Positions 20,394 through 44,835 of a DNA stretch of 64,000 nucleotides are shown in pieces. The stretch's first letter is position 1. Each line of letters starts with the position of its first letter. The notes beneath the pieces were generated by a model. The model did no database searches, was not told the origin of the DNA, and was given only the letters and a program-made list of their open reading frames with translations. The translations under genes were made by a program, and so were the position numbers. This DNA comes from Promethearchaeota archaeon (GTDB lineage: Archaea > Asgardarchaeota > Heimdallarchaeia > Hodarchaeales > Hodarchaeaceae). Where the stretch lies: assembly GCA_048938105.1 (NCBI GenBank), contig JBHLMN010000025.1:1-64000 (forward strand). Direction: 5' to 3'.

Positions 20394-21785
20394 ATGAATG
20401 ACCAAGAAGAAATACTAATACAAAAAACTAGATGGAATAGTCGCAGGTTTCTCCTTTTGTATTGGTTCGCTTTCGTTTTCGTAGGAACTGCAGCAGCAGC
20501 TGGTTTAGGAACTAGTGTTCTAAATCCTAAAATAAAGATTAACAAAGTCGATCACAGTTCGCTCAACTTACCAAGTGAATGGGGTCCAGAAGACTGCACA
20601 GGTTCCATGTGTCATAATGATACAGTCGCTTCCTGGAATGAGACAGGCCATTCAAGAGCTGGGACTCTCTTGCCAAATGGCTCATGGCTTGTAGGAGACG
20701 ATCATATCTACAACGATTCCTTTTTCCGCTCCTGTTATGGAGGTGATGAAGCATTAATTCAATGCCATACTACTCGATACAACGAAACAGATGGAACCTA
20801 CTGGACTGGAACCAACGGTGTTAGCTGTGCGGCGTGTCATGAAGAACCAGGTATGATAGATTATGCAGCTGACAACTGCCAAATCTGTCACGAGTATTCA
20901 AATAATAATATAACTGGAGACTATCAGATGAGTGCACATAGTAAATCATATGAAGATTTGTTAGCAGGTGGATATGCACCTAGCAGCTGTTTACACTGTA
21001 TGACTGGTCAAGGGGTATATATGGATGTGACAGGTCAAGAAGACATCTTGACTTCGATAAACTGTGGAACTTGTCATGATCCACATGATGCAACTAATGA
21101 AGCCCAACTCAGAGAAACCGAGGTTAATGAACTTTGTGGCACTTGTCACAGTAGTACAGTAGAAGTATTCGAGGATTCCCGCAATAAACACTTGAACTAC
21201 GTAGATGAAGCTTGTGCTTCATGTCATGGATATCAGCTAGACCCTAAACCCTGGAACCCCAATAATGCGAGGATTAACCATTCATGGACGATTAATTTCG
21301 AAGATGCCTGTGGACAATGTCACACAGGTCAAGTCGACACACGAAAAGACATGTTAAATTATATCCAGGGGAACTTCGAATCTCTGAATGCCACATACTA
21401 CACCCAACTCGCTAATGTCACTGCTAAAGTTGATGAAGCAAATGGGACAGCTGGAGTGGATCTGTGCACAATCGAAGATGCGTATGCTCTGATCGAAGAA
21501 GCTGAAGAACTGATTTATCCAGTTGAACATGATGGAAGTTATGGTTTCCATAATCCCACAATGATGGAAGATAATTTTGCACTGGCCCTAGCCAAACTAG
21601 ATGAGGCATATGTTAAAGCCGAGACTGCTATTGGTGGTGAACAAACTAGTTCTACAAGCACTACTGGATCTACTAGTTCAATTACAACTTCAGGTGGTAC
21701 ACCTGGATTCGAGTTGTCCACTATCTTGGCAGTAATCAGCCTCGTATCAACAGCAACAATCTTATTACACAGAAAGAGACGCTAA
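20394..21785 (+). CDS. Cell-surface multiheme cytochrome c (NrfA/c552-like clade), copy 1, with PGF-type sorting tail
   Basis: Six CXXCH plus CX4CH, CX9CH and CLHCM; helical C-domain with DGSYGFHNP; Ser/Thr linker; TPGFE-TM-RKRR. Confidence 0.9.
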   Translation: MNDQEEILIQKTRWNSRRFLLLYWFAFVFVGTAAAAGLGTSVLNPKIKINKVDHSSLNLPSEWGPEDCTGSMCHNDTVASWNETGHSRAGTLLPNGSWLVGDDHIYNDSFFRSCYGGDEALIQCHTTRYNETDGTYWTGTNGVSCAACHEEPGMIDYAADNCQICHEYSNNNITGDYQMSAHSKSYEDLLAGGYAPSSCLHCMTGQGVYMDVTGQEDILTSINCGTCHDPHDATNEAQLRETEVNELCGTCHSSTVEVFEDSRNKHLNYVDEACASCHGYQLDPKPWNPNNARINHSWTINFEDACGQCHTGQVDTRKDMLNYIQGNFESLNATYYTQLANVTAKVDEANGTAGVDLCTIEDAYALIEEAEELIYPVEHDGSYGFHNPTMMEDNFALALAKLDEAYVKAETAIGGEQTSSTSTTGSTSSITTSGGTPGFELSTILAVISLVSTATILLHRKRR

Positions 21786-21819
21786 ACACTTGGTTGGATC
21801 CATCTCTAAAATAAAAAAC

Positions 21820-21856
21820 GATAACAGCTCATTCGCTGTTATCTTTACCCTTTTTC
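21820..21856 (+). terminator. Hairpin plus T-tract downstream of cytochrome 1
   Basis: GATAACAGC-tcattc-GCTGTTATC followed by TTTACCCTTTTT. Confidence 0.6.
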
Positions 21857-22016
21857 CAGAAGTGTGGGGAATGAGGAAGGTTTCGTTGTAAAACATGAGT
21901 CTATCGAGCTTGCTTGAAGTGTTTTCCAAGATTTAATTTTTGCTTTTAAAACTGGTACTTTTTCAATAATCCGCTATAAATTACGATTGTCTTGATACCC
22001 CTTCAGAAAAACTGAG

Positions 22017-24191
22017 ATGATTAAATATATGCAAAATAGTTTATCTACACTACTAAAGTGTAATCAAAGGTATCTTTTCTTGCCTTTACTAGTATTACTT
22101 ATCATAATCCCTTCGATTATGATGTTATCTCCGACTAGTAAAAGGTTGGATTTTGTAGAGTCTCAAAAAAATACTTCTAGTATTTCTCCTAAAGTGAGTA
22201 ACAACGAACAAGACAACAATCCTGATGCTTATTTTCCAAATTTTCTTTATTATTCAATTTCAGTGGCAAATGCCCTGATTGATTACTTATACGACAATGA
22301 TTCTGGTGGATTCTTCCGCTCAGTTAACCAGTTCTGGTCTAATAATTCCATTAATATGTTGAAATATTCTTATGATCAAGCACAAGCTATTCTTGCATTA
22401 TTAAAACTTTCTGATGCTGTAATTAATGATTCTGAACGTGATTTTGCGATTCATTTTGCTGAATTAATCGGTAATTATATGATAACACGTCTTTATGACA
22501 ATGAAGTTGGAGGATTCTATACATCCACTAGTAGTTCATATAAAAAGCCAGGAGTGAATGGAAAAGTTATTCAGTCTCTCCTCTCCCTATACAAGACCAC
22601 TGGCAACATTTCTTATAGAGATAAAGCAATTGAAACTTTTGAGTTTATAGACAATTTTGGTTGGGATAGTGAAAGTGGTGGTTATGTTTATCTACTGTCT
22701 CATAGTGGTCTCATTGCATCATCGAATCCCAGTTCAGCCGATCCTTATGATCCTAACTCAAAAAAAGTAGATCATAATGCTATTATGGGGGAAGCCTTAC
22801 TTGAACTATATCTTTTAACTTCTGATCCTTCATACATTTCTAAAGCAACAGAACTTTACCAGTTAATCAACACCTCTTCCAGAGACTATACCACTGAATT
22901 GTTCTATATTGGATTTAACAATGGTGGAATTGTTGAGCCGGATTATACTGACATTTTTATAAATTCCCTGATGCTAGAGTTTCTATCTCAGCTCTACAAC
23001 ATAACTGGGGATTTGACTTACTTTTATGATTTTCAATCTTTAATAAATGCTGTTCTTTTAAATTTTTGGGACTCTTCCAATGGAGGATTTTTTGCCACAT
23101 TCCCCTATAATAGTCAAGTTGAGAAAGACGAGAAGAAATACACAGAGAGGCAATTTTATGCAATTAGAGCTCTTGATGAGGCCTACAAGTTGACAAACAA
23201 TAACTTATATTATAATCTCATTCTGGATGTAATGGAATTTCTAAATAATAATCTCTATGATAATGTTCATGAGGGATACTACCTATTAGCAAACGCTGAT
23301 GGAACAGAAGGAGAACAAAACTGGAAAGATAAATATTCTGTTACTCAATCCCTAGCTATCTACGAATTAGCCAATCTCTGGCTTTATAGTAAGCCTAGTG
23401 TTCTCAATGCTCTCTGGTCCCCTTTAAATCCACGACCTTCAGATGCTGTTACGATTAGGATTGCAGCGTTTGATGCGGATGGTCTTTCCACCGTATTGTT
23501 GAATTATTCTATGAATAACCAACCCTACAAGTTAATAGAAATGACCACCAATGAACTAATAGGGAATATGTATGATTTTACCTTTGATTCTCAACCACAT
23601 GGCACAACAGTGAATTTTAACATCATTGTTAATGATACCTTAGGGAATATCGTTGTTCGAGAGTCATATTTCTTTGTTTGGGAGAATGATATTTTACCTC
23701 CTCATATTATGTTATTGGGAATAAATCCAAGTAACGAGATTTTTGTCAGTTCTAATTTTAGTATAACTGTGAGTGTACATGATAATCCTCCCCAAGGAGA
23801 TGTCACGAGTGTTCGTATGTATTATAAAGAAACGGGTCAATCAAAGTGGGCATCCAGGGCATTATTTCGGTTAGGTGATTATTTGTGGAGGATAGAATTC
23901 CCCGATGGTTTCAAAAAACCTAATAGATATGAATACTTCTTTGAAGCAATTGATAATCGAGGAAATTTTGGATTTAGTCCTTATTTTTACTTAGAAGTCT
24001 ATGGCCATCCAAAAAACTTCCCATTAACTGCATTTATTGGTGGCCTTTTTTTCATATTATTTATTGTTCCTGCAGGGATTATTGTTTACAAAGAATACAG
24101 TAAAAATAGTGCTCGTACAACCTTAAGAAACATTAAGAAGACACGCAATGTAAAACGGAGGAAAAAGAGAGGGACAAGACGTATAACGTAG
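22017..24191 (+). CDS. Membrane-anchored (alpha/alpha)6-barrel protein (AGE/YyaL-SPATA20-like) with Ig-like domains, copy 1
   Basis: Repeated LYD...GGF[FY] barrel motifs, KY.YDQA, two beta-rich domains, N- and C-terminal TM segments, basic tail. Confidence 0.75.
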   Translation: MIKYMQNSLSTLLKCNQRYLFLPLLVLLIIIPSIMMLSPTSKRLDFVESQKNTSSISPKVSNNEQDNNPDAYFPNFLYYSISVANALIDYLYDNDSGGFFRSVNQFWSNNSINMLKYSYDQAQAILALLKLSDAVINDSERDFAIHFAELIGNYMITRLYDNEVGGFYTSTSSSYKKPGVNGKVIQSLLSLYKTTGNISYRDKAIETFEFIDNFGWDSESGGYVYLLSHSGLIASSNPSSADPYDPNSKKVDHNAIMGEALLELYLLTSDPSYISKATELYQLINTSSRDYTTELFYIGFNNGGIVEPDYTDIFINSLMLEFLSQLYNITGDLTYFYDFQSLINAVLLNFWDSSNGGFFATFPYNSQVEKDEKKYTERQFYAIRALDEAYKLTNNNLYYNLILDVMEFLNNNLYDNVHEGYYLLANADGTEGEQNWKDKYSVTQSLAIYELANLWLYSKPSVLNALWSPLNPRPSDAVTIRIAAFDADGLSTVLLNYSMNNQPYKLIEMTTNELIGNMYDFTFDSQPHGTTVNFNIIVNDTLGNIVVRESYFFVWENDILPPHIMLLGINPSNEIFVSSNFSITVSVHDNPPQGDVTSVRMYYKETGQSKWASRALFRLGDYLWRIEFPDGFKKPNRYEYFFEAIDNRGNFGFSPYFYLEVYGHPKNFPLTAFIGGLFFILFIVPAGIIVYKEYSKNSARTTLRNIKKTRNVKRRKKRGTRRIT

Positions 24192-24208
24192 TGAATGGAG
24201 AAATTACA

Positions 24209-26422
24209 ATGATTTATATTGATTTTGGAGCTTTTGGGATGGATTTAGGTATGTTGATATTGCTTTTTAGCCTAGTAGCCCTTTTGATTGATGTCTTTTT
24301 AGTGATTTATGGTGGATACATTGAAAAATGGGAAATTTATTCAGAAATAAGCCTTTCTGCTGGTATTCTGGCTATTATCATCTCTTTCCTATATTTTAGT
24401 TATTCAGTTATAACAGCTGATTATCACTTCACCTATGTGAGTGATCATATTAACAATGATATGGACTTTTTCTTAAGACTATCAGCCATTTGGTCTGGAC
24501 AGTCTGGATCTTATTTCTTTTGGACATTTCTAGTTGTAATGGTTTATTCAATCTTCAGGCTGATGTTCAAAGAGTACGCGCATGAGACAATCTTTTGGCG
24601 AGCGTTTGTCTTATCAGCTCTTCAAACATCTGTTTTGGTGGCCTTAACACTGCTAAGTGATCCGTTTAAAATAAATGATGGTGTTTTTTCCGATGGTATT
24701 GGATTAAATCCATTATTAATGACGTATTGGAATCTCATACATCCTCCAATTGTTTTCATTGGTTATGCTCTATGTTTAATTCCAATGGTCATTGGAATAA
24801 CAAGAATCTCTATTCTTAAAAATGGTGAGTTGCCAGAATTTGAAGGTAAAGAAAAATTAGATAATTTCTTTGAATTTTTAGTTTCATTTGCATGGCTTAT
24901 ATTAAGCCTTGGAATAATAATTGGTGCTTATTGGGCTTATATGACTCTCGGTTGGGGTGGTTTCTGGGCATGGGATCCCGTAGAAACAGCTTCGTTGATA
25001 CCCTGGCTTTTTATAACCCTTTATTTCCATGGAAAACCTTTTTTTGGCAAAACTAAATACCTAGAAAATTACATTATTAGCATGAGTTACATTGGTGCTT
25101 TGTTTACTACATATTTAACAAGAAGTAATATAATTTCAAGTGTACACGCATTTCAATCCGAAGCAACTTTAGAAAATATTCTAAAGATTTTTATCCCAGA
25201 AAATAGTTTTTTTATGTCCATTATATTGCGATTCATTCCTGATGAGAAGATGTTATTACTTTTTATTGTCATAATAAGCACTTTTCTTATCCCACATTAT
25301 TTTGGAATTAGGAGTAAGGATATAACAAGGATTCCAATCTATTTTGAAAGAAAAGATTTTCAAGGATCAAGATCTCATATAACTGCCTTAAAAATCTCCT
25401 TTATTTCAGGTCTTATAGGTTCTTATATTATCATCATAGGTTTGATAACCCCTACTATTTATGATATTGTTGGATATATAATCACTTTCAGTCCAGAGGG
25501 AGTTGGTTCAAGCATTGTTGTAGACCAATTGTATTTTAATACAGTTATAACGATTTTTGGAGGTATAATGTTACTTGCGCAGTTTTTCTGTACTTTTTAT
25601 CCGAGATTGGATGTTAAGAAGAAGTTTATGTTAATGATAGGAGGATTAACAGCAGGAATCACATTTTCAATAGGAGGTTTCTTATATCGAAGTGGTTTTC
25701 TTAATCAGATTCTTGGAGACAAAAACCTAATACTTCTCTTATTCAATAACTTCTGGACAACTAGTGACAAAGCAAACTTAGTAATTCCTCTTCTATTTCT
25801 GGGAGTGGTTGGATTGCTAGTAGAGTTTTTAAAAGTGGCTTTTAAAGAAGAAAAGAATGTTATCCGAAAAACATCGCAAATACTGTTACATCTTTCTTTC
25901 TTAGTAATTCTCCTTGGTGCATTAATGAGTGCAAATATGACTGTTTCTAGTCAAATTTTGGGTCAAGAAGGAGGTGAATATAAAATTCCAGGAACTTCTG
26001 TAACAATTATTATTATAGATTTAGATAGAAGATTTCCTGAATCAGGTTTCAATCGAGTCGAATATGATACACAATTCATGTTGTCATCAGATGCACGAAT
26101 CATTGCATTTGGAATCAGTAGACTCGCTTATGATAAGATAAACCGAATGGATCATGAGGTGACAATAATTAACGATCTCTTTTCTAACATTTACATCGTA
26201 ACTAGTGGGGTTTTTGAAAACCCCATTTCTGGAATTTTTGAGGCTGCTTCCCTCCAGATTAAAGTTATACCATATATTAACATTTTGTGGGTAGGATGTC
26301 TTCTCCTCCTTTTTGCTATCCTCCCCTTGACCATAGGGAGATTTATTATCCTGAAAAAGACCTTATCTTTTAGAGAAATAGAACAGAAAGATGTTAAAAC
26401 GAAAATAGTGCCAATTAAATGA
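24209..26422 (+). CDS. ccmF: Cytochrome c heme lyase CcmF, copy 1
   Basis: GLNPLL, IHPP, WAY.TLGWGGFWAWDPVETAS (WWD domain), SSVHAF, LLHLS. Confidence 0.93.
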   Translation: MIYIDFGAFGMDLGMLILLFSLVALLIDVFLVIYGGYIEKWEIYSEISLSAGILAIIISFLYFSYSVITADYHFTYVSDHINNDMDFFLRLSAIWSGQSGSYFFWTFLVVMVYSIFRLMFKEYAHETIFWRAFVLSALQTSVLVALTLLSDPFKINDGVFSDGIGLNPLLMTYWNLIHPPIVFIGYALCLIPMVIGITRISILKNGELPEFEGKEKLDNFFEFLVSFAWLILSLGIIIGAYWAYMTLGWGGFWAWDPVETASLIPWLFITLYFHGKPFFGKTKYLENYIISMSYIGALFTTYLTRSNIISSVHAFQSEATLENILKIFIPENSFFMSIILRFIPDEKMLLLFIVIISTFLIPHYFGIRSKDITRIPIYFERKDFQGSRSHITALKISFISGLIGSYIIIIGLITPTIYDIVGYIITFSPEGVGSSIVVDQLYFNTVITIFGGIMLLAQFFCTFYPRLDVKKKFMLMIGGLTAGITFSIGGFLYRSGFLNQILGDKNLILLLFNNFWTTSDKANLVIPLLFLGVVGLLVEFLKVAFKEEKNVIRKTSQILLHLSFLVILLGALMSANMTVSSQILGQEGGEYKIPGTSVTIIIIDLDRRFPESGFNRVEYDTQFMLSSDARIIAFGISRLAYDKINRMDHEVTIINDLFSNIYIVTSGVFENPISGIFEAASLQIKVIPYINILWVGCLLLLFAILPLTIGRFIILKKTLSFREIEQKDVKTKIVPIK

Positions 26423-26433
26423 GAGTACATGAA

Positions 26434-26826
26434 ATGATTAGATCTAAAAACCTTATGTTCGCTATAATTATAATGTTTGTAAGTGTAAGTGCATTATTGT
26501 TTCTATTAAGTAGTTCCAGTGTTCCAGTTTTTTCCGTAAAAGAACTTAAAAGCCATTCCCAACCCAGTTCTTTCTTAAATCATAATATTCAAGTGGTAGG
26601 TGTCGTTCAGGATATAAATAGTACTGGTTTTTTTATAACAGATCCAGAGGATGTAACAAATTCATCCTTGATTATATACATTAATGCGACTAATGTAGAA
26701 AAGCCTGTAGGTTTTGAATCTGGAAAAACTATTCTCGTTGAAGGAAAACTCATTTCAACAACAGGTATGTGGAAGCTAAAAGCGTCAATGATTAGCACTA
26801 AGTGTCCATCTAAGTACACAGAGTGA
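26434..26826 (+). CDS. ccmE: Heme chaperone CcmE (CXXXY, System I* type), copy 1
   Basis: N-terminal TM, P.GF..G..V.VEG, KCPSKY. Confidence 0.9.
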   Translation: MIRSKNLMFAIIIMFVSVSALLFLLSSSSVPVFSVKELKSHSQPSSFLNHNIQVVGVVQDINSTGFFITDPEDVTNSSLIIYINATNVEKPVGFESGKTILVEGKLISTTGMWKLKASMISTKCPSKYTE

Positions 26827-26875
26827 GATCTTTTCTTATCAAGAAATATAGAGTAAAGTGTTAAAGTGAGTATAA

Positions 26876-27364
26876 ATGAACATCCAATCAAAGAAAGTAA
26901 ATGATGAAAGTCTTGAATGGAGTGGAGAGTTTAAGCAATTCTTAAAGGAATGGTTCTCTGGGTTAATAGCTGGAATTGAAAGATTGAATGATAGTACTTG
27001 GCCTATGATTTTAGAGTTAACGGGTCGTGCTTGTGCACGAATCCATTCTAATGCATTATTTTGGGAGATTTGGGAACTTACCCGTAACCTTGATGATTTC
27101 ATTGAAAAAGTTAATGAAATATATAAAGAAAAAGTCTTTGAGATTATTGACAAGGATACTATCTCTGTATGTTATTCTAAATGTAATTGCCCATTAGTCG
27201 AACATGGTTTAGTAGACTCACCTCTCCTGTGTAATTGTTCCCCAAACTGGTTAGCAGAGAATTTTGAATCAATTCTTAAAAAATCAGTAATAATAACCAC
27301 TAAAAATACGATTTTAAGAGGAGCAAAGAGTTGTAATTTTATTATTTCTATTGAAAGCGAATAA
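26876..27364 (+). CDS. Cys-rich V4R/DUF6144-like protein
   Basis: GRACA, CNCP, CNCS, RG...C.F pattern. Confidence 0.65.
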   Translation: MNIQSKKVNDESLEWSGEFKQFLKEWFSGLIAGIERLNDSTWPMILELTGRACARIHSNALFWEIWELTRNLDDFIEKVNEIYKEKVFEIIDKDTISVCYSKCNCPLVEHGLVDSPLLCNCSPNWLAENFESILKKSVIITTKNTILRGAKSCNFIISIESE

Positions 27365-27687
27365 GGGTATATTAGAATACAGTTATTTTGATTATTTCAA
27401 TTTGTTTTATCATTCTGAATTATTTTTTGGTTTAAAAAAATCCTCACATAGTTTTACTATATATGGGCATCTGATTATCTATAAGGTTTTACTGATTTTT
27501 CAATCAATTCAACAACAATGAAAACAACTCTACATGATATAGTCTGTCTAGCAAACGCATTATCTCTTCTGAGAATGACAAAACTGATATACATCAAATA
27601 AACTAGATAACTCTATGTTTAAGGTTAGCTTCGTTAATTCTGATAACAATAATTCTGCTGATCTTCCTTAGTGAAGCCAAATATAAT

Positions 27688-27873
27688 TCATTTCATCTTG
27701 TTTCTTAATTCTTCCAAGTTATTATTTGCCATAATCAGTTCTTGAAGAGCTATTTCAGAAAATTCATCATTCAATCCGTTATTAGGGTAGCATTTGAAAA
27801 AAAAGTTACAAATATTACAATTTGGGAAGAAATCACGACAAATCTTTTCTCTATCGGTCTTTCCATTTTTCAT
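27688..27873 (-). CDS. Small Cys-rich hypothetical protein
   Basis: C-x6-C-x2-C-x5-C; AGGAG RBS-like sequence upstream. Confidence 0.4.
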   Translation of the reverse strand: MKNGKTDREKICRDFFPNCNICNFFFKCYPNNGLNDEFSEIALQELIMANNNLEELRNKMK

Positions 27874-28140
27874 TTTTTCACTTCTCCTTAATACTTATTT
27901 ACTTAACAACAATTATGTTGTAGTTATGTTATATTTTTTATATTTATAACATTTTTTATTTTTAAAATTTTTTTTGTGTTTTAATTATTTTATTCATTCT
28001 ATTAATGAATGGTATATTTCTGAAGAAATAAACTAAATAACAATAAGACAATTTAGAAATGGGTGCTTGAAAACTTAAATTGAATTTTTCCCTTCTATCC
28101 CAACGTATAGCACAATTAGCAGAAAAAAGAAAAAGAATTT

Positions 28141-28329
28141 TCTGAAGATATGATTAGCAAATCTTTGGTTATTTTTATCAATGTAAATAATGTTAACATA
28201 CTTACAGGATTTGAATCTGGAAAAACTGTACTGGTAGAAGGAAAACTCATCTCAACATTTTATACATAGTTCCTTAAAGCTACAATGATTAATACCTAAT
28301 GTCTGTTTAAAAATAAAAATGAATTATGA
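28141..28329 (+). pseudogene. ccmE: Degraded third ccmE copy (3' half)
   Basis: Translates SEDMISKSLVIFINVNNVNILTGFESGKTVLVEGKLISTFYT*FLKATMINT*CLFK, colinear with both CcmE proteins; stops at 28267 and 28297. Confidence 0.85.
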
Positions 28330-28415
28330 GGAACTAGTCTTGATAACTAATAAATTTCAATGAAACCTAAACTGGATTTTTTTATCATAGTAATTTGTAT
28401 TGCCATCCTGAACTA

Positions 28416-28661
28416 TTATTTCGAAGATCCTAAGCTTCCCATTAAGATAAATACCTTTCTCTTTCCAATTTGATTTGACAAGATTGCAGTTAAAATATCA
28501 GCAATCAAGTAAGAAGCATAGAGGGCTGTGTCGAAATAGGAAGCTTTCAATAAGTATAAACTAAACCGCTCAACCAGGAATTCATATTGATTTGTGTGTA
28601 GAAGTGTTGGAGTCAAAATGGTTACGAAAACCAAAACACCCAACACAATGATTTGCGTCAT
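28416..28661 (-). pseudogene. N-terminal remnant of an MFS transporter
   Basis: TM segments plus a degenerate motif A (AILSNQIGKRK); truncated at 81 aa. Confidence 0.55.
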
Positions 28662-28795
28662 TGAACTGGGATTTATTGCACTCTAGAAATCCCGATCCCT
28701 ATTTTCCTTTTTCATTTCTCATCTATTAATTAATATATTACTGATTGGTAATTCAAACCTTTGTTGAAATAATTTAATTCTATGATAAATCCTTG

Positions 28796-29749
28796 TTATG
28801 GGAGAAAAGAAGTAATGACCACTCCCACAAATAACCAGAGAAATGCAAATGCCATAAAAATTGATGCCAGTTTGAAGATCTTAAATGTCCTTTCATGAGA
28901 TGGTTTTCTAAGATTAGTAAATGCTTGAAAAAGGATGAATAAACAAAAAAGAATTAAAGGGAGAAGAGCGAGAAGATTAATTTCTAGACTGATCCCAGCT
29001 AGAACAATGATTGAAGCACTAAGAATAGCTGATAATGTTACAACACGAATTGTTTGGGTTTGACTACTGACTACAGGCCACATGGGGACACCGGCATTCT
29101 TATATCCCTCTAGGTTCTTGGGGATAAGAGCTAGAGTAAGAATATGCAAAGGAATCCAACAGAGAACAAAAAGCCCCATCAATATTGCAGTCAGATCAAT
29201 TATTCCAATCACTGCAGCTCGCCCCGCAACAGCTGGGAGTCCTCCTGCAACACCCCCAAAAATTATAGATAACCGTGTTCGTCGTTTTAACAAAAGTGAA
29301 TAAACAACAACATCAAAAAAAAACCCTAAGAAGACAACAACCATTGTAAGAAAATTAACAAATATTCCCACCACCAGAGTACCTGCAGCTGTGAAGAGAA
29401 TTCCGTGTTTTAACACAGTCGAAGGAGGAACTCTTCGACTGGGTAAAGGACGATCTCTTGTTCTTTCCATAAGTGCATCAATATTACGATCTACGTACAT
29501 ATTAAGCAATGTGGAGCCAGAAATTGCAAAAAAAAGCCCAACAACAAACCAAATGAATGACAATAGGTTGAAGCTTGCGCCCCAAGCGGTTATTAGATGA
29601 GCAAAAATTGCAGTATATAGAAGAAGAAATGTTTGTTTGCTTTTGATAAGTTCCCCGTATGTAGAAAGAGAAAGAGGGGGGTATGAATATTTTACCAATT
29701 CTTCATGTTCCAGTTGTTGTTGGGGAATTTCCATTTCATCCATCAACAA
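28796..29749 (-). CDS. ctaB: Protoheme IX farnesyltransferase (heme O synthase)
   Basis: N.Y.DR.ID..M.RT..RPLP, Y...LKRRT, GG.AG, W.P.H, Y..AGVPM.PV. Confidence 0.92.
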   Translation of the reverse strand: MLMDEMEIPQQQLEHEELVKYSYPPLSLSTYGELIKSKQTFLLLYTAIFAHLITAWGASFNLLSFIWFVVGLFFAISGSTLLNMYVDRNIDALMERTRDRPLPSRRVPPSTVLKHGILFTAAGTLVVGIFVNFLTMVVVFLGFFFDVVVYSLLLKRRTRLSIIFGGVAGGLPAVAGRAAVIGIIDLTAILMGLFVLCWIPLHILTLALIPKNLEGYKNAGVPMWPVVSSQTQTIRVVTLSAILSASIIVLAGISLEINLLALLPLILFCLFILFQAFTNLRKPSHERTFKIFKLASIFMAFAFLWLFVGVVITSFLP

Positions 29750-29781
29750 GCCATTCCATAATTACTCAATTGAATAGGGTA

Positions 29782-31365
29782 TTATTCTGGGAACTCCTTA
29801 ACATCTTTTCTTCCTTTGAGAATCTGGATGAGCTGATGGAAACAAAAGATGGTAATTGCAATGACAAAAAGCATTATTCCAAAATCAATTATAAGATTAA
29901 TTAAAGATAGATTGGGTAGTAAAGGCATATTGTGAAGCCAGTAATCCAGTACATCATCGTATTTATCTAATTCTGCCGCCCAAGTCTGATCAAAGTGGGG
30001 AAAATACATATAGATCGCTGTAGGAAGAAATGCCATGATGCTACCAGCAAAAGACAGCCAACCCATTGCTATTCGTGGCTTACCTTGAATATCTAATATG
30101 TCAATGAAGAAAAGGAGGAGGAGGATCGCTGATAACACAGCTAAAACGTGCCAATGACCACGGGCAACCGTATCTTCGATAGCTACAGGGCCCGATCGAA
30201 ATGATACCATACCTGTTACCCTCGTCAAAATTGAATCATCGCGAAGACTAAGCGCAAGGAATATACCTGTAAAAGTCATTACGAAATTTACCCATATGAA
30301 TAAGAAATATAACGTAAGTTTCACAGGATCTTTGAACACAGCTTTTGCACGAGTAAGCCAGGATGCAGATCCATAAGAATCACCAAGGATTTCCTTACTC
30401 GTTTTATTCCAACCAGTTAATGCCAATATTAAACCAACAGTTACGAGAATTGCTGAGCCTGCATAAATTAGATAATGAATATCAACATCAGCGAATGAAT
30501 GAATCCACTCGGAGATTGTAACAAGCCAACATCCTATTGACATGATGATAAATCCTGGAATAGCAAGTAACATTGAAATAAGATACCACTTCCCCTTTTG
30601 ATCTGGAACAGTGTACCGATATACAACTAGTAAGATAATCACATCGATAAGTCCCAACATTATATGTAAATGACCCTTAATCCCATCAACAAATATAACT
30701 GGGTAAGTAATATAGTCATATTCTCTAAGAAAATATTCTGCTTGTAATACTGTCAATCCATTACCGAAGAAAGCTCCTATTGACGCTCCGAGTACAACAC
30801 TTGCTAAGATACAGATAGTAAGTAGTGCTAATGCAAGTTGTGCGACAAAAATATTCCTACCTGTATCTGGATCTCGTCTTGGGAAGGTCCTGGTTGGGAA
30901 AACACCGATAAGTAACATGATACCCGCATAGAAACAAAGAGACATCCCTACCAAGAACAGACCATGTAATATCCACGCCTCTGGAAGAATATACGCAAAA
31001 ATCAGTGCATTCGCAGAAGCTAAAATACTCCCAATAAATAAAGGCCATTTCACGCGCGATCTAAACTTCTCCCGAACATCCATGAATTCCAGAACAAAAT
31101 ATGTACATACAGCAATGAATGGAACCGAGATTGCATGATAAACCATAATTATACGGCCCGCTTTTTCAACTGGATCGGGGTCTAATGTCATCCAAGGCTC
31201 TACATTTAAGAGTCCCGTTATTGGTTCAGAAAAGGTCGATAAAAAGAGAACAATACAGAACTCCCAAACAATCGTAAAAGTTATCATTCCTTTATAGGTC
31301 AGACCATAATTGATTTTGTACTTTAACCAGGGAATAATTCCTTCTTCTTTTACTTCAGTCGTCAT
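29782..31365 (-). CDS. Polytopic membrane protein with heme-copper-oxidase-like His pattern, function unknown
   Basis: About 12 TM; VYHA (TM2), GHLH, ARGHWHVL; 32 bp upstream of ctaB on the same strand. Confidence 0.6.
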   Translation of the reverse strand: MTTEVKEEGIIPWLKYKINYGLTYKGMITFTIVWEFCIVLFLSTFSEPITGLLNVEPWMTLDPDPVEKAGRIIMVYHAISVPFIAVCTYFVLEFMDVREKFRSRVKWPLFIGSILASANALIFAYILPEAWILHGLFLVGMSLCFYAGIMLLIGVFPTRTFPRRDPDTGRNIFVAQLALALLTICILASVVLGASIGAFFGNGLTVLQAEYFLREYDYITYPVIFVDGIKGHLHIMLGLIDVIILLVVYRYTVPDQKGKWYLISMLLAIPGFIIMSIGCWLVTISEWIHSFADVDIHYLIYAGSAILVTVGLILALTGWNKTSKEILGDSYGSASWLTRAKAVFKDPVKLTLYFLFIWVNFVMTFTGIFLALSLRDDSILTRVTGMVSFRSGPVAIEDTVARGHWHVLAVLSAILLLLFFIDILDIQGKPRIAMGWLSFAGSIMAFLPTAIYMYFPHFDQTWAAELDKYDDVLDYWLHNMPLLPNLSLINLIIDFGIMLFVIAITIFCFHQLIQILKGRKDVKEFPE

Positions 31366-31454
31366 ATAATAACCTCTTGAGTAATATCTCTTATTATGGT
31401 TTTTTGATGGTTTTTTGACATTTTATCAATTCTTCATAAGAAATATTTATGATT

Positions 31455-31577
31455 TAATTTCAACTACTTTAGTAAGTTAAGACTGAGATTTCGATATTTT
31501 TATTCAATCTTCTGACAATAAGTAAGTTTTCTATGGTTTTTCTAATTTGGTGAGAAAAAAGTAATCTGATAACTTCC
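31455..31577 (-). promoter_or_regulatory. Shared upstream element, copy A (HCO-like/ctaB operon)
   Basis: Core AAGTAA-TCTGA-TAACTT at 31559-31575 plus ~35 bp matching the other copies. Confidence 0.7.
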
Positions 31578-31683
31578 ATTCCCAATGATTGGAAAAAAAA
31601 AATAAGGTAGAAAAGACATATTTTCTACTGGATTGTAATTATTTACCTTCAATGTGTTTGAACGTCAATTACTAGGAATTTAT

Positions 31684-32349
31684 TTAGAAAGGGATTTCTG
31701 CTTTCCATTTACTGGGTAACAGAATTCCTAGAACGAAGAAGACTCCAACAATTACTAATAAGAGAGGTAACACATCAAAAATTTGTTGTTCAGTTAAAAA
31801 TGGATTTTCCAATGCAACAAAGGCAAGCAATACTCCACCAAATGAAATTAGTAATCCACCAATTGAGAAGAGAATACTTGTCATTTCCGTTTTTTTAGTG
31901 AAGGCGGTATAAAGTGGAATACCAACAATTGAAAGACCACTGGGGATATGGAGGCCCATTAATACAGGTGAGGAAAAGGCATCAAGACCAGAAATGAGCT
32001 CAAGTCGGACAACTGCCAAAACTAGTACCATTACAACTGTAAAAATAGTGTAAAATAATCCGTAAGGTTTGTCCTTCCAAACAGCAAAGAATAGTCCAAT
32101 TGCTAAACAAGCAGGTATAAAAGCTGCAACTACTGGCACTAAGGGTTCCTTAAGGATGATAAAACCGTTCAATATAATCAAAACTCCCGATACAAACAGA
32201 ACAAGGAAGCTAATGGCCCATGCTATATGATAGACTTTCTTATTCTTTAAGTAATTTAAAATAAGCAAGATTGCCATAACTAGTGCCACAACACCAGTCA
32301 CCAATAATAGTAGTATTGGTATTAGGTTCGTTGATATATCATCTAACAT
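31684..32349 (-). CDS. Hypothetical 7-TM membrane protein
   Basis: Hydrophobic ORF with GAGG RBS. Confidence 0.75.
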   Translation of the reverse strand: MLDDISTNLIPILLLLVTGVVALVMAILLILNYLKNKKVYHIAWAISFLVLFVSGVLIILNGFIILKEPLVPVVAAFIPACLAIGLFFAVWKDKPYGLFYTIFTVVMVLVLAVVRLELISGLDAFSSPVLMGLHIPSGLSIVGIPLYTAFTKKTEMTSILFSIGGLLISFGGVLLAFVALENPFLTEQQIFDVLPLLLVIVGVFFVLGILLPSKWKAEIPF

Positions 32350-32625
32350 CTTTAAACCTCAAATAACAATTGTTAAATCTGCAGAATAGTAGTAGGTGGC
32401 AAAAATATTAGGATTTGCTAAACGAAAGCTCATGGATTAATAGTTCAGATAGTACATAACAAAAAAATAACCTAATTATTTTTGAGGTAAAAAAATATAT
32501 ACTTGAATTAGGAGTAGCTAATAGTTATTATGAAAAATTATTCAATATAATTAATGAATAATTCCCTATTATTAAGAACTGGTTTTTTTCTTAAACCTAA
32601 GTTTAATTAAGAAGGTAAATATACG

Positions 32626-33096
32626 ATGAATAATTACTCAGAAGATGAATGCTCTGCTATGGTCGCTATCAAGATTCTTGGACGGAAGTGGATTCCTTGG
32701 ATTGTGTGTGAACTCTTATCAGCGGGAGAACTATTCTTTTCTGACCTCCTAGACAGAATTGAAGGAACTTATGGGGAAAAAATATCCGCAAGAGTCTTAT
32801 CGGAGTCTTTGTCCAGGTTAGAAGAGATGAACTTATTAGAACGTACGGTAGTTAGCGAAACAATGCCCATTAGAGTGAGATACTCCTTGACTCCTAAAGG
32901 AACAGATCTTCAGGTAGTTTTTGCGGTTTTAAAGGGGTGGGGAATAAAATGGGGAGACATTCGTCAGAAAAGATGTCGTTCATTCAGTTGTATTCATAAT
33001 TGTGTTCCAATGATTGATATTGATAAAGCAGCAGGTTTGTTGGAACTAAGAGATCCAGAATCACCCCCTCTGAATAAGATTGAGGATTCTTCTTAG
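32626..33096 (+). CDS. HxlR-family winged-helix regulator with N- and C-terminal Cys
   Basis: C...A..ILGRKW, F..L, ISARVLS..L..LE, P.RV.YSLT.KG..L, W G. Confidence 0.9.
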   Translation: MNNYSEDECSAMVAIKILGRKWIPWIVCELLSAGELFFSDLLDRIEGTYGEKISARVLSESLSRLEEMNLLERTVVSETMPIRVRYSLTPKGTDLQVVFAVLKGWGIKWGDIRQKRCRSFSCIHNCVPMIDIDKAAGLLELRDPESPPLNKIEDSS

Positions 33097-33282
33097 CTTG
33101 TCGTTCTAGCGTTTTTTATTAGGATTGATCAAAAAGAACTCCATATCGAAGGGTTTATTGTTAAAAAACGAGGGTACTTCATTCGTGAGATGATTAGGTA
33201 ATAAAAAAAGAGTGGAAGAAAACCTACCAAGTTGTTTTCTTCGGATGTTGTCAGGCTTAGTCTCAAGAAAATAATTTCTTAA

Positions 33283-34017
33283 TTAGGTTTTCAAAGGTAC
33301 TGGTTTAGGAGAATAGATTACATTTAACAATCGTCCAGCAATTTGTGTAATCATCCCAAGTAAGAAACACAACATTCCACCAAAGAACTGAAGTGTGCCT
33401 GAGGATAAGAGATAACCATATCTATCTACACCAATATTTACCCCATCAATTATGTGTGTTGGCATAATTAAAGGTTGAACCATCATTACAATCCCTAAAC
33501 CAAATAACACAAAAGCAAAGTTTGCAACTTGAGATCCAACGCTTCCTCCAGAAGAAGAAGCAGGTTCTTCTATATGTACCTTAATTTCTTGCTTAAACTT
33601 TGGTAATAATAGTAAGATCAATATGATCAAATTCAGGATCGCTGAAATCCAAGAAGGGGTGAAAAGTAAACCTGTCCGTGGTGTAGAAAAAAAGCCAATT
33701 GACATTAATATAGCAGGAATACCTCTCCCTATAATTCCTGTAATACTGGCAATAAGGGCTGCTGGATAGAACCACGTTTTTCTAGCCCAATATGCCCAGA
33801 TAAGAACTCCCCACGCAAGCGCTGAGAACCAGGTCACAAAGTAAGTGATAAACCAGATTTCTGAATAGTCTCCTGCAATTGCGAATGGCCCCTTTTGCCA
33901 AAATGGATCAAGTGATACGCACGTACTTCCAATGGCACTAACAACTCCAACAGCTGCTGCCGCACCTATTAAGAATTCCATTTTATGTTGAGTTATTGCT
34001 TTTAATATACTACTCAA
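33283..34017 (-). CDS. Hypothetical membrane protein
   Basis: About 6 TM segments; carries the shared upstream element. Confidence 0.75.
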   Translation of the reverse strand: MSSILKAITQHKMEFLIGAAAAVGVVSAIGSTCVSLDPFWQKGPFAIAGDYSEIWFITYFVTWFSALAWGVLIWAYWARKTWFYPAALIASITGIIGRGIPAILMSIGFFSTPRTGLLFTPSWISAILNLIILILLLLPKFKQEIKVHIEEPASSSGGSVGSQVANFAFVLFGLGIVMMVQPLIMPTHIIDGVNIGVDRYGYLLSSGTLQFFGGMLCFLLGMITQIAGRLLNVIYSPKPVPLKT

Positions 34018-34076
34018 GTTCCTAACCTTCTTTTTTCTGATTAAATTTCTGCATTAATTTTTAGGATGTACAAGGC

Positions 34077-34202
34077 TTGAAATTTCAACTAATCATTTGA
34101 TTGACTATCAAAAATTCAGTTCTTGGTTCCTTCCAATGTTGCGAATAAGAGCATTTGGTAAGATTTGAATAATATAGTGAGAAGAAAGTAACCTGATTAC
34201 TT
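34077..34202 (-). promoter_or_regulatory. Shared upstream element, copy B
   Basis: Perfect core AAGTAA-CCTGA-TTACTT at 34186-34202; hairpin/TTGAAATTTCAA at 34077-34118. Confidence 0.75.
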
Positions 34203-34351
34203 AGTAAGGGAAAAAACCAGAATAAAAATCATCCTAAAAATATACTACAAAAAGCTTTGAAATTAAGATGTTAATTACTTCCCGAGAATTACAGCGCTAT
34301 CCCACACGATTTATTAAATTCACAATTACACTAAGCCTATAAACAACCTTG

Positions 34352-34484
34352 CATGTTATCGGGTTACTTTCTGTTTACTTGATTATTGAAAACTTAGAAA
34401 ACACTTCTTATTGAAGGAGGGTGCCTTTTAATAGAGCCCCCTGAAATTTCAATGATCATTCTGATGATTGATTGATATTTCAAA
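34352..34484 (+). promoter_or_regulatory. Shared upstream element, copy C
   Basis: catgttatcgggttactttctgtttacttgattattgaaaacttagaaaa; hairpin at 34442-34482. Confidence 0.75.
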
Positions 34485-34530
34485 GAGAATTGGGGCTTAA
34501 TGGCATTAATAAACATGAGGAGATAAGGAT

Positions 34531-35907
34531 TTGAATGGAAAGCCGAAACATACCATGCTTTTAACCTCAGTGATTGCTATATTTTTCTTGATCGGAGGAG
34601 TATTTGTTATTAAAACTTCTGTTCATTTTTTCCCGATAGATAGCTCAATTGATTCGAATTTAATTAGCAATGAAGCGAATAAAGTTATTCCTCAGAATTA
34701 CACCAGACGGGAGGTTATGAATGTTCAACAAGACGCGTGTTGTGGTCATACTGATACAACTCCTCCTACAATACAAATCAATTCGCCTGCTAATAATTCC
34801 TTTGTACTTGGAGGTACAATTATTGATCTAAAAATTTTTGATGATAATCCGTTTTATGATTACGAAGCAAAACAAGTCCTTTATCGTTGGGGAACAGACC
34901 AAAGTAATACAACCCTTGACTCTCCTCATAATGTGGTTATATCAAATGATATTGGAACATATGTTTTGTATGTCTATGCAGAGGATAATGATGATAATTG
35001 GGGTTCAGCTATATTCAGTTTTACAGTTACATTAACTTACAATCCACCGACTATAGAAATAATTTTCCCCAGCACTAGTAATCAAACTCTTACAGGAATG
35101 AAGTTATTCAGTGCCAATGTGAATGATGATAATGGAATTCTCGACGTAAAAATACAAATCGATGTAGTGGTGGATGGTGTTAGGTATCCTGGTCGTACTT
35201 ACCCTATGTATTATAACGAGACATCTAGTTATTATGACATGAATTTCAATGTTTCATCGCTGACTAATGGCTACCATTGGCTTGTAACAATCGCTACAGA
35301 TCTTGATGGGGAACAGCACATAGTTACTAAAGAAATTGATTTTACAGTTATTGGTGGGATAGGAGTAATTGTGGGGGGTGATCCACCTGAATGGGATCAA
35401 ATCCAATCAGTTCTTCCCAAAAATGTTAGTAAATATATCGAAGAAGATAAATTCTCAGATTACGAGGCAGAAGTTGGTGATGTTTACTTTAAGCTGGTTG
35501 TATCTGATGAAGTGGGAATTGCAGCAGTTGATCTCACAGTTTACGCGTTGGATGATTTTGATAATAGTACTGGTGAGTTTGAGCTTGGTGATGCTCGGAT
35601 AGAATTATCTGAATCTCTAAGTCAAATTGGAACCAATGGAAACTGGCTTATATATGAATATACATGGGATAGCACATCTTCTTTGGATAATTATTATCTA
35701 TGTAAATTTGAAATCCAAGATGAGGATACGATAACGAATCGCTTAATAATCAGCATAGTTCTTGAGATAGACAACGTTGTTGATGATCAACCAACCGTTG
35801 ACTTTGGTTCACCAGGGTTTGAGGTAGAAATACTAATTCTCGCTCTGTCAAGTTTGGTTCTCTTAGCTGTCCTTATCAACCGTAATCATACTCACAAGAA
35901 TGACTAG
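34531..35907 (+). CDS. Acidic Ig-like-domain surface protein with PGF-type sorting tail
   Basis: Signal/TM, D..PP.I.I.SP.N repeats, SPGFE-TM tail; ACCGH near the mature N-terminus. Confidence 0.8.
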   Translation: MNGKPKHTMLLTSVIAIFFLIGGVFVIKTSVHFFPIDSSIDSNLISNEANKVIPQNYTRREVMNVQQDACCGHTDTTPPTIQINSPANNSFVLGGTIIDLKIFDDNPFYDYEAKQVLYRWGTDQSNTTLDSPHNVVISNDIGTYVLYVYAEDNDDNWGSAIFSFTVTLTYNPPTIEIIFPSTSNQTLTGMKLFSANVNDDNGILDVKIQIDVVVDGVRYPGRTYPMYYNETSSYYDMNFNVSSLTNGYHWLVTIATDLDGEQHIVTKEIDFTVIGGIGVIVGGDPPEWDQIQSVLPKNVSKYIEEDKFSDYEAEVGDVYFKLVVSDEVGIAAVDLTVYALDDFDNSTGEFELGDARIELSESLSQIGTNGNWLIYEYTWDSTSSLDNYYLCKFEIQDEDTITNRLIISIVLEIDNVVDDQPTVDFGSPGFEVEILILALSSLVLLAVLINRNHTHKND

Positions 35908-36126
35908 AGAACTAGACTCCAATCATCTCATCTTTCCCCAAGATTGCTATTTGTTTATTTTGTGATTCAAATTTTCTCATTTTTATTTCCAGAATTATTA
36001 TTAAAATAATCATGTTCAAAGGTGTAGAAGACAACCAAACCTACTCTGACTTAGAATTCCATAGGTTCTCTGCTATTATACCTCAACACAGGGTACTCTA
36101 ATGATGATAATTTCGAGTATTTTTTA

Positions 36127-36253
36127 CATGTAATCAGGTTACTTTCTACTTACTTGATTATTGAAACCTTAGAAAATCTTCTAAAAGTCGTAGGATGTTC
36201 TTTATCAGACTTGAAATTTCCTTAATCTTTCTTATGATTAATCGAAATTTCAA
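36127..36253 (+). promoter_or_regulatory. Shared upstream element, copy D (cytochrome cassette 2)
   Basis: catgtaatcaggttactttctacttacttgattattgaaaccttagaaaa; strong hairpin at 36211-36253. Confidence 0.75.
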
Positions 36254-36337
36254 ACAGAGCCTATTCTCAAAAATTTAAATCAAAACAGAAATTTGCAGTA
36301 ACTTTAAATGAAATCCAAAAAAAATGGCGGAATTTTA

Positions 36338-37900
36338 ATGAATGACCAAGAAGAGATCTTAGTACGCCAAAGTAAGTGGAACGGTCGCAGAGTTGTATTG
36401 CTCTACTGGTTTGCTATTGTCTTCATTGGAACAGCAACAGCTGCTGGTGTTGGAGCTGGTGTTTTAAATCCAAAATACCAGTTTAAAGTGGAACAATACA
36501 CCCATGACGATAAATTCGGCGATGGAACTATCTGGCATCCCGAAGAATGTGCTACTTGCCATCCAGCGGAATACGAAGGTTGGAACCAAACTCTCCACTC
36601 TTATCTTTTCGCTGAGTATAATGAATCTTATTTGATTCATTATAGCGGTACTTACCAGAACACAACCGCATTCCTGGAAAGTAAAGGCTGTTGCCATGTA
36701 ACAAATTGGTACAATGATACTTCTGTTGACCCTTCAGGTGAACTTAAAGTTTGGGATTATGGAGTGACTTGTGCAGCTTGTCACGAGGATCCGGATAATG
36801 GATTTGATCCCGTGGGTTATATGCCATTCGGTCCAGCATCCTACCCCTGTGGTGGTTATGGTATGAAGGGTATGCCACTATGTCATATCCCCCGTGGTGT
36901 TTCTCAGTTTGATATGATTGGTCCTCACTCCCAAGCGCTCGATGATTTGCTTGCTAGTGACGATATAGACGATTCTTGTCTCCATTGTATGACTGGAAAT
37001 GGTCTTGTCTATGGTTATGGCCCAGGTGAAAACAAAAGCTATGAGTACGGAGAACTTATCGGTATCGAGTGTTATGTATGCCACAATCCTATGGGTGTTT
37101 CCAATGAACTGTATAAAGAGGATAAATATCCTAATCTTACTCTTAATTCTACACTGAGAGCAAATAGTATTCCTGAACTTTGTGGAGAATGTCACAGCGG
37201 AGATTACGACTCATCTTATGCAATGATAACAGATACTACTGTTCAAGGTCCCCATTCAAACTTCGATTGCACACAATGTCATGGATATTACTTAGATCCT
37301 GCAACTGAGTCGCAAAATGCTTCTTTTGAGCTCAATCATACATGGACACTCAAACTTCCTGATGCGTGTGCTACTTGCCATCTTCCTACGGGTACAAACA
37401 TGAGTGCTCTCAATGCCACAATAATGGCAACTACTATGGAATCTAGGATGGAGCTCCTTGAGGGCATCCAAGAAGATATTGCAGCATTAGTAGATACAGT
37501 TGAAACTGAGATAACAGCCACCACCACCAAAGCAGACGAAGCTGCAGCAGTTTCAGGTGCTGATGAGGATGAAATCGCTGAAATTTACCTCTTGATTGAA
37601 GAAGCTAAAGCCTTGGTCGAGTTTGTTGAAGCCGATCCAGCAGGTGGATTCCACAATCCTGATCTCACGGAAGTAAAACTACAGTTGGCATTGACTAAGT
37701 TATCTTGGGCGAAAACAGCTGCAGAAGCTATAATCACTCCCCCAGGTACCACCACTGAAGAACCGTTAACAGTAACCAAAACCACACATGCAACTGAAAC
37801 TATAACTGAAACCACAACTGCAGCAGCAACAGCTATTGGTATCTTAGCAGTACTCAGTATCCTCAGTGCAACCGTTCTTTTCCAGAAAAAAAGGCGTTAA
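36338..37900 (+). CDS. Cell-surface multiheme cytochrome c (NrfA/c552-like clade), copy 2
   Basis: Six CXXCH plus CCH, CX10CH and CLHCM; DPAGGFHNP; Thr-rich linker, TM, KKRR (no PGF). Confidence 0.9.
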   Translation: MNDQEEILVRQSKWNGRRVVLLYWFAIVFIGTATAAGVGAGVLNPKYQFKVEQYTHDDKFGDGTIWHPEECATCHPAEYEGWNQTLHSYLFAEYNESYLIHYSGTYQNTTAFLESKGCCHVTNWYNDTSVDPSGELKVWDYGVTCAACHEDPDNGFDPVGYMPFGPASYPCGGYGMKGMPLCHIPRGVSQFDMIGPHSQALDDLLASDDIDDSCLHCMTGNGLVYGYGPGENKSYEYGELIGIECYVCHNPMGVSNELYKEDKYPNLTLNSTLRANSIPELCGECHSGDYDSSYAMITDTTVQGPHSNFDCTQCHGYYLDPATESQNASFELNHTWTLKLPDACATCHLPTGTNMSALNATIMATTMESRMELLEGIQEDIAALVDTVETEITATTTKADEAAAVSGADEDEIAEIYLLIEEAKALVEFVEADPAGGFHNPDLTEVKLQLALTKLSWAKTAAEAIITPPGTTTEEPLTVTKTTHATETITETTTAAATAIGILAVLSILSATVLFQKKRR

Positions 37901-43847: not shown

Positions 43848-43879
43848 AGCTGGCTGGAAATTAAGAGGTGATGATTATC

Positions 43880-44822: not shown

Positions 44823-44835
44823 ACCTTGGGGATGA

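Follow-up and report, generated by a model that had tools for sequence, protein, structure and literature searches.

How could a c-type heme be held by a motif that lacks its axial histidine? The question is raised by a 64,000-nucleotide stretch of DNA from a Promethearchaeota (Asgard) archaeon of the Hodarchaeales (GenBank assembly GCA_048938105.1, contig JBHLMN010000025.1, positions 1 to 64,000), referred to below as the window, in which two genes encode multiheme cytochromes. The first, MHC-A (20394..21785, + strand), is an OcwA-like nonaheme-type cytochrome of 463 residues counted from the methionine at 20394, and the second, MHC-B (36338..37900, + strand), is its paralogue. In both proteins the fifth of nine cysteine motifs reads CLHCM, the methionine standing in the place of the histidine of a CXXCH motif. 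The signature, written CxHCM hereafter, is conserved family-wide, and by sequence it points to a mode of c-type heme attachment that has yet to be described.

The open reading frames of both genes (20364/20394-21785 and 36308/36338-37900) give stop-free translations. The frame of MHC-B opens at 36308 and its homologues begin at the methionine encoded at 36338. As homologues begin at MN.Q.E, the true starts are likely 20394 for MHC-A, as given in the preliminary description of this DNA, and 36338 for MHC-B. The cysteine motifs are, in order, CX4CH, CX9CH, CXXCH, CXXCH, CXXCM and four CXXCH in MHC-A, and CXXCH, CCH, CXXCH, CX10CH, CXXCM and four CXXCH in MHC-B; they contain 18 of the 19 cysteines of the former and all 18 of the latter. 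The nine ordered motifs originally reported are thus confirmed, provided that the non-standard spacings are counted. Downstream of motif 5 both proteins have, besides the four CXXCH motifs, a long helical bundle and the sequence GFHNP.

MHC-A begins with an RR-containing transmembrane helix and ends with a Ser/Thr-rich linker, a PGF tripeptide and a second transmembrane helix. Since the N-terminal helix is conserved, a C-terminal transmembrane helix is present in both proteins (with PGF in MHC-A) and each window cytochrome carries 10-11 N-glycosylation sequons, it is plausible that both are membrane-anchored with the heme domain outside the cell, in line with the surface location first claimed. 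A search for the archaeosortase A that would process the PGF tail returned sub-threshold matches only. The leader itself (20394-20531 and 36338-36475), with its RR pair and transmembrane helix, shows stronger family-wide conservation than the bulk of the mature protein, residues W34, F39, G41, A45 and G47 being close to invariant. Such constancy speaks for an anchor that stays in place, or for an element that is recognised, and against removal as a signal peptide.

The CLHCM motif is encoded at 20988..21002 (+ strand, tgt tta cac tgt atg) in MHC-A and at 36977..36991 (+ strand, tgt ctc cat tgt atg) in MHC-B. The sequence bears out the initial reading of two diverged paralogues (34% identity) that share SCLHCMTG, the codons for Ser, Leu, His and Gly in this segment being synonymous but different. 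Among 57 full-length relatives, with columns 30% identical on average, 45 have C-[LMI]-H-C-M here, so the motif is not due to chance. V, Q or L replaces the methionine in 6 others, and 6 more, forming one subclade, have lost both cysteines. When more distant relatives were added, CxHCM was found in 69 of 103 aligned sequences, motif counts that come from kin sequences and are hence not independent, with approximate alignment in loop regions. To the question raised at the outset, whether CXXCM is clade-specific, the homologue search thus answers with a clade-wide motif and not a one-off. More distant OcwA-like outgroups have CXXCH at site 5, and a FastTree tree, which is fast, unrooted and provisional and gives direction only, gathers the CxHCM state in one clade of about 63-69 rows, the CXXCH state lying outside. 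The two states also meet within one genome (G396), whose paralogues read CVHCH and CIHCM. A distant Asgard family has CMHCM at this site in 13 of 16 sampled proteins. One distant family member (G318:C1:2167524-2168828; L016, L031) carries a canonical CMRCH there. When its genome, a single contig and 86% complete, was searched with the window proteins, neither CcmF nor a six-hairpin protein was found and nothing but a CcmC-like gene turned up; the case stands alone.

The methionine does not come alone. In the 103 aligned sequences, methionine at the position after the second cysteine (+1) is accompanied by histidine at the second residue between the cysteines (X2) in 69 of 69 cases, against 1 of 15 when +1 is histidine. 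Conversely, an X2 histidine is followed by methionine at +1 in 93% of cases. The six members without the site-5 cysteines also lack the internal histidine while keeping their other heme motifs. The internal histidine, which had been offered as an alternative ligand to the methionine, is therefore not an optional feature: it is coupled to the methionine, a link that the first inspection of the locus had not seen.

We then located the motif with respect to characterised cytochromes. Pfam gave partial multiheme matches only, together with a C-terminal NrfA-family match (PF02335) limited to residues 282-423 at 31.8 bits, and no NrfA model of NCBIfam matched at E 1e-3. Against the PDB, OcwA (6i5b) ranked first both with a single sequence and with a profile of 60 relatives (profile E 5e-35), followed by MccA, the undecaheme OmhA, octaheme nitrite reductases (ONR) and NrfA, whose chains align with the C-terminal part of the family profile only. 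The alignment of the profile to OcwA falls into three blocks, corresponding to site 1, sites 2-4 and sites 5-9 plus the bundle, and places CLHCM opposite CLKCH, the fifth CXXCH of OcwA. An AlphaFold2 model (pLDDT, the predicted local distance difference test, of 72) also retrieved OcwA as its top Foldseek match (TM 0.45) and shows motif 5 as a helical turn, as in canonical motifs. By homology, MHC-A and MHC-B are thus assigned to the OcwA-like nonaheme cytochromes of the NrfA/MccA/ONR superfamily. Hemes 5-9 of OcwA superpose on hemes 1-5 of NrfA, heme 5 being an active site (PMC6703420); since CLHCM aligns with OcwA heme 5, its placement at the catalytic heme 1 position of NrfA, as originally proposed, is supported by way of OcwA.

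The proposed pentaheme core layout of NrfA was borne out in part: sites 5-9 and the bundle follow it, but the closest protein is OcwA and the match to NrfA is C-terminal only. An identity with NrfA itself was ruled out, as the tests on the catalytic and distal motifs fail and no curated model matches. Automatic annotation names these genes ammonia-forming nitrite reductase, a name to which the evidence gives no support. In OcwA, hemes 2 and 5 are five-coordinate, histidine-ligated active sites at opposite ends of the chain, each lying below a His-His motif (PMC6703420).

The position of OcwA heme 2 is also altered in the window proteins. Motif 2 is CX9CH in MHC-A (20733..20768, + strand) and CCH, with adjacent cysteines, in MHC-B (36689..36697, + strand). 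The motif is non-canonical in much of the family, relatives showing CxHCM, CxxCM, CCM, CCH, CX3-9CH, CXXCH and, rarely, CxxC[F/W/R/K]; methionine, a rare residue, is the main alternative to histidine at +1 of both site 5 and site 2. Here too an X2 histidine goes with methionine (16/21 CxxCM forms versus 0/40 CxxCH forms), so the CxHCM signature has arisen a second time, independently, at the other active-site heme of OcwA. The adjacent-cysteine form of MHC-B is conserved among relatives as G-C-C-H or G-C-C-M, and the CX0CH arrangement, if heme-binding, would be a further undescribed motif.

Next, the distal pockets of the two altered sites were compared. In OcwA and the outgroups, the heme-5 pocket corresponds to an HHPQYE-like motif that follows the heme-7 motif and resembles the QHPEYE of NrfA, and the heme-2 pocket to a twin of this motif located after the heme-4 motif. 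A histidine occurs within the first 14 residues after the heme-7 motif, the region of the [RH]H[PT]xYE-like pocket motif, in 38 of the 69 CxHCM proteins, the counted residue being in a few of these, including MHC-A, a different conserved histidine just before the heme-8 motif. At site 2, the CGHCM proteins keep HHPQY in 8 cases out of 8, one of them as NHPQY. The persistence of active-site pockets beside CxHCM in many relatives argues that heme is still bound there.

In MHC-A and MHC-B, the pocket histidine is gone from both pockets and the His-His motifs are absent. Between the heme-7 and heme-8 motifs of MHC-A, the sole histidine is the conserved one preceding the heme-8 motif. At the places where the window proteins have lost the distal motif, relatives retain RH..YE or HHPQYE. 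Consistently, the KAQHPE motif reported missing is absent from both window proteins, and a recognisable version of it is kept in relatives. Because the distal pocket histidine is lost in both, an NrfA-like active site and NrfA-like catalysis are unlikely in the window copies; such an active site is plausible where relatives have retained RH..YE.

The sequence data establish the homology, position, conservation, covariation and gene context of the CxHCM site; its heme occupancy, methionine ligation, potential shift and physiological role are inferred. We hold with moderate confidence that a heme c is attached at CxHCM, that methionine is its axial ligand and that the coupled histidine is needed for the same site. 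This is the simplest reading because of the His/Met exchange, the bookkeeping of cysteines, the retained pockets and the intact lyase encoded nearby. In its support, the exchange occurs at the exact position of the axial ligand, and does so even between the two paralogues of one genome. The co-located archaeal CcmABCEF system would mature both outward-facing cytochromes. At site 5, the end-of-chain heme that is catalytic in NrfA and OcwA, an ancestral CXXCH would have been replaced by C-x-H-C-M, the heme c staying attached via both cysteines and the methionine, exactly in the proximal-histidine position, serving as axial ligand of the iron. The internal histidine would be the one needed by the lyase for attachment, or else a second-sphere or switchable partner of the methionine. 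Such a thioether proximal ligand would be expected to raise the potential and alter the reactivity of the terminal heme, with the same effect at site 2 of those relatives where it reads CxHCM. Since the distal His/Tyr pocket has been lost in the window copies, their site 5 more likely serves as the tuned point at which electrons enter or leave a surface electron conduit than as a catalytic centre of the nitrite reductase type. From the homology to OcwA and the membrane anchors, surface electron exchange is the likely physiological role. Of the functions initially put forward, extracellular electron transfer or nitrogen and sulfur chemistry, this agrees with the former; nitrite reduction is unsupported for these copies.

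Several points weigh against a methionine-ligated heme. We know of no maturation system that accepts a heme motif without its histidine, and the bacterial Ccm system is not known to do so. The synthase HCCS attaches no heme when the motif histidine is missing (PMC4158909). Some relatives have V, Q, L or R at +1 of site 5, and F, W, R or K at +1 of site 2, so that a ligand at this position is not obligatory for the protein to persist. Methionine also occurs without the internal histidine, in CAGCM, CAACM and CCM at site 2 and in an outgroup CWACM. Moreover, the confidence of the structural model is low around the motif (block pLDDT 62-67), and a catalytic role is doubtful for the two window proteins, both being without the distal pocket histidine. 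Finally, the absolute coupling of methionine and histidine fits the internal histidine as a real ligand equally well.

If the coupling is taken in that sense, a heme c would be attached at CxHCM with the X2 histidine as its proximal ligand, shifted two residues toward the N-terminus, and with the methionine packing against or tuning it. The histidine appears when methionine replaces the motif histidine (69/69 at site 5, 16/21 at site 2) and hardly ever otherwise, it is held without methionine in CLHCV and CAHCV variants, and many members retain the distal pockets typical of the His-ligated, five-coordinate hemes of OcwA. In the usual helical turn of CXXCH, however, the X2 side chain points away from the iron. 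Methionine at +1 is also more constant beside an X2 histidine (93%) than packing would need, and CCM, CAGCM and CWACM have the methionine without the histidine. We regard this arrangement as unlikely.

An equally doubtful explanation is that site 5 binds no heme at all, the CxHC segment forming a disulfide by the logic of the DsbA-like CPHC, or the Cys, His and Met residues a site for a metal such as copper, so that the protein would be a wire of seven or eight hemes. Site 5 is dispensable, given the subclade without both cysteines. According to the authors of the OcwA structure, MccA has no equivalent of OcwA heme 5; hemes 2 and 5 lie at the chain ends, so that their loss would leave the chain unbroken, and MccA has an active-site copper (PMC6703420), Cys, His and Met being classic copper ligands. 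In addition, known maturation systems require the motif histidine (PMC4158909). A site without heme would leave unexplained, however, why histidine and methionine exchange exactly at the axial position, also between paralogues, why a distal pocket of the NrfA/OcwA type is kept beside CxHCM in many members, and why a second heme site bears the same signature. Moreover, CCH and CCM retain after the cysteine a histidine or methionine that a disulfide would not need.

We consider it very unlikely that a heme bound to both cysteines takes its proximal ligand from a remote residue, as with the lysine of octaheme tetrathionate reductase, or has none, the motif His and Met being second-sphere residues. 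Members with CMVCV, CMPCV, CLKCQ or CLKCL do keep both cysteines without a possible ligand in the motif. But no H, K, M, Y, C or other tested polar residue is specific to CxHCM proteins with respect to CXXCH proteins, except the motif His and Met and a histidine at position 64, and the seven conserved non-motif histidines just cover the seven canonical hemes. The search for a clade-specific remote ligand returned only this N-terminal His 64, which is Tyr or Phe in most outgroups. Finally, the internal histidine as distal ligand of a neighbouring heme was ruled out, because it vanishes along with the site-5 cysteines while the other hemes persist, and it must thus serve site 5.

The genes surrounding both cytochromes provide the maturation context. 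At each locus the order is cytochrome, six-hairpin protein, CcmF and CcmE, all on the + strand. After MHC-A come a membrane-anchored (alpha/alpha)6 protein, six-hairpin protein A (22017..24191), located between the cytochrome gene and ccmF, then the heme lyase CcmF-A (24191..26422) with an intact WWD segment, WGGFWAWDP, and CcmE-A (26419..26826), which has CPSKY and is of the archaeal CxxxY type (cf. PMC9084895). After MHC-B come six-hairpin protein B (38142..40379, 54-56% identical to A), CcmF-B (40382..42643, 67% identical to CcmF-A) and CcmE-B (42558..43034, also CPSKY, with a likely start at the methionine at 42621). The genes ccmC, ccmA and ccmB (43167..45525, + strand) follow downstream of this second set. 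As judged by sequence, the genes fit the streamlined archaeal System I, made of CcmABC, a CxxxY-type CcmE and a WWD-containing CcmF. No CcmH, CcmI or CcmD turned up, no search having been aimed at them. The segment 28141-28323 encodes a third CcmE-like piece, which is truncated, shares 54-59% identity with the C-terminal 56-61 residues of both CcmE copies and is probably a remnant of the cassette duplication.

The genome that contains the window (on contig C50) measures 5.85 Mb at 99% completeness. In this whole genome no further CcmF, CcmE, CcmC or member of the cytochrome family was found, and no open reading frame besides MHC-A and MHC-B has more than two CXXCH motifs; the two are the only multiheme cytochromes of the genome. 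The genome-wide search gave one ccmC and one ccmB, ccmA being uncountable since its query picks up numerous further ABC ATPases as well. Other Hodarchaeales loci keep the order cytochrome, six-hairpin protein, CcmF, as does the distant Asgard family, in which the six-hairpin protein is 25% identical. The order holds also for a member without site-5 cysteines and where CcmF is single, and relatives of the latter kind still carry CxHCM. A lyase dedicated to the unusual motif beside a general one, by the logic of NrfEFG or CcsA1, was thus rejected, because the only CcmF proteins are those of the two cassettes, 67% identical, with no other set of CcmF and cytochrome, and because the cassette is present where site 5 is lost. 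From this conservation we conclude that the maturation system co-evolves with a single substrate family, with no split between general and dedicated lyases. The six-hairpin protein, of about 730 residues, lacks any CXXC motif and has a single cysteine, which lies in its N-terminal region; it may chaperone the apocytochrome or have the heavily glycosylated substrate as its target. A thioredoxin-type (YyaL-like) reductase was ruled out on the single cysteine, the missing CXXC and the lack of any thioredoxin match.

Between the two loci (28796-31365, - strand), a heme O synthase (TIGR01473, 215 bits) adjoins a 527-residue polytopic, His-rich protein with seven invariant histidines, including an H-x-H in a late helix, and the pair is kept beside the cytochrome cluster in other genomes. 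The 527-residue protein has no oxidase match by Pfam, NCBIfam or a profile search of the PDB, and shows no more than a feature-level resemblance in the ESM Atlas. As no COX1 was found in the 99%-complete genome either, a heme-copper oxidase was ruled against as electron acceptor. Upstream of MHC-A (14797-16463, - strand), a cytochrome b561-like membrane protein (Ni_hydr_CYTB) is paired with a 301-residue exported protein with transmembrane helices at both ends. The pair, also found upstream of the cytochrome in the Hodarchaeales locus L003, is a candidate membrane module for electron input. Two regulators with helix-turn-helix and MetOD1 domains (19046-19735 and 13103-13783) are encoded upstream of MHC-A as well, and similar ones precede the cytochrome in L003. 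Directly 3' of ccmB lies an FTR1-type iron permease (45554-46519), an adjacency unseen in the other loci examined, followed by a sensor-like protein with DUF1858, DUF438, hemerythrin and PAS_10 domains (47237-48631).

The close homologues are labelled Hodarchaeales, Heimdallarchaeota or by other Asgard names. Among 399 representative genomes of the phylum, 50 are matched by the family profile. Matches occur in 15 of 20 genomes of the window's genus, plus the window's own genome, and in 34 of 89 genomes from two or three families that are distant; no other family of the same class was matched. The cluster of one more distant homologue includes a member labelled Sifarchaeia. By their gene content, some Hodarchaeales and a second Asgard lineage thus encode predicted surface multiheme cytochromes together with a complete Ccm system.

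The CXXCH histidine is regarded as almost inviolable in cytochrome c biogenesis, and the natural exception at its position known to us is the lysine of NrfA, which needs a lyase of its own. In the full-text literature we found CXXCM only as an engineered, non-matured variant, no natural CXXCM motif being described, and no paper on multiheme cytochromes of Hodarchaeales or on these proteins. What is known here is thus the OcwA/NrfA-superfamily cytochrome, and what is new is the undescribed motif that runs through the family. For the maturation field, a family-wide methionine, strictly coupled to an internal histidine and arisen twice, would bear on the range of motifs that Ccm-type lyases recognise and mature; for the bioinorganic field, the interest would lie in a thioether-ligated heme at a catalytic or terminal position. 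More tentatively, CxHCM might represent a new natural class of c-type heme site with methionine in place of the proximal histidine, enabled by a co-evolved, Asgard-specific CcmF/CcmE/six-hairpin module that uses the internal histidine as a surrogate for attachment, the terminal hemes serving Hodarchaeales as surface outlet or inlet for electrons. In that case these hemes would have a high potential or a distinct chemistry, and the conduit could supply syntrophic partners or minerals, or connect to the adjacent membrane protein that depends on heme O. Hodarchaeales have been proposed as the nearest archaeal kin of eukaryotes and are reported to be devoid of cytochrome c; cytochromes in these archaea matter for models of their electron flow and syntrophy. 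A recent isolate-based study, which searched for the class-I domain, reported Heimdallarchaeia to lack cytochrome c (10.1101/2025.02.26.640444).

Among known systems, the closest is OcwA of Thermincola potens (6i5b), a nonaheme cell-surface terminal reductase. The window proteins share with it the order of the nine heme sites, c554-like for sites 1-4 and NrfA-like for sites 5-9, the C-terminal three-helix bundle with a G-x-H-N motif and a predicted location in the cell envelope, and in either case sites 2 and 5 stand out from the rest. They differ in that OcwA has CXXCH at all nine sites; in the window proteins site 5 reads CLHCM and site 2 CX9CH or CCH. The His-His pockets over hemes 2 and 5 of OcwA are both lost, and the window proteins are archaeal, with transmembrane anchors at both ends. 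As for the pentaheme nitrite reductase NrfA, sites 5-9 and the helical bundle follow its heme-core layout, and the non-histidine residue falls at the same motif position as its lysine. The catalytic heme 1 motif of NrfA is CXXCK, or CXXCH in some clades, whereas the window proteins have methionine; its QHPEYE finds a counterpart in the [RH]HPxYE of relatives but not in the window proteins, and these have four extra N-terminal heme sites.

Two further systems are precedents for departures from CXXCH ligation or cysteine spacing. In octaheme tetrathionate reductase a lysine ligand comes from outside the motif, and anammox cytochromes have a contracted CXCH motif; neither is known to show a His-to-Met swap or a coupled internal histidine. 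The octaheme sulfite reductases MccA/SirA, of the same superfamily, have the odd motifs CX15CH or CX12NKGCH, which still end in CH and depend on specialised lyase components for maturation (PMC6976685). The organisms that encode them also hold a general lyase, whereas none was found here beyond the two cassette CcmF. On the maturation side, the nearest counterpart is the CcmABCEF system of Methanosarcina acetivorans (PMC9084895), which is alike in CcmA, CcmB, CcmC, a CxxxY-type CcmE and CcmF and is devoid of CcmD, CcmH and CcmI. In the window CcmF is unsplit and duplicated, an extra six-hairpin membrane protein is encoded between the cytochrome and CcmF, and the substrates carry CxHCM, CCH and long CXnCH motifs.

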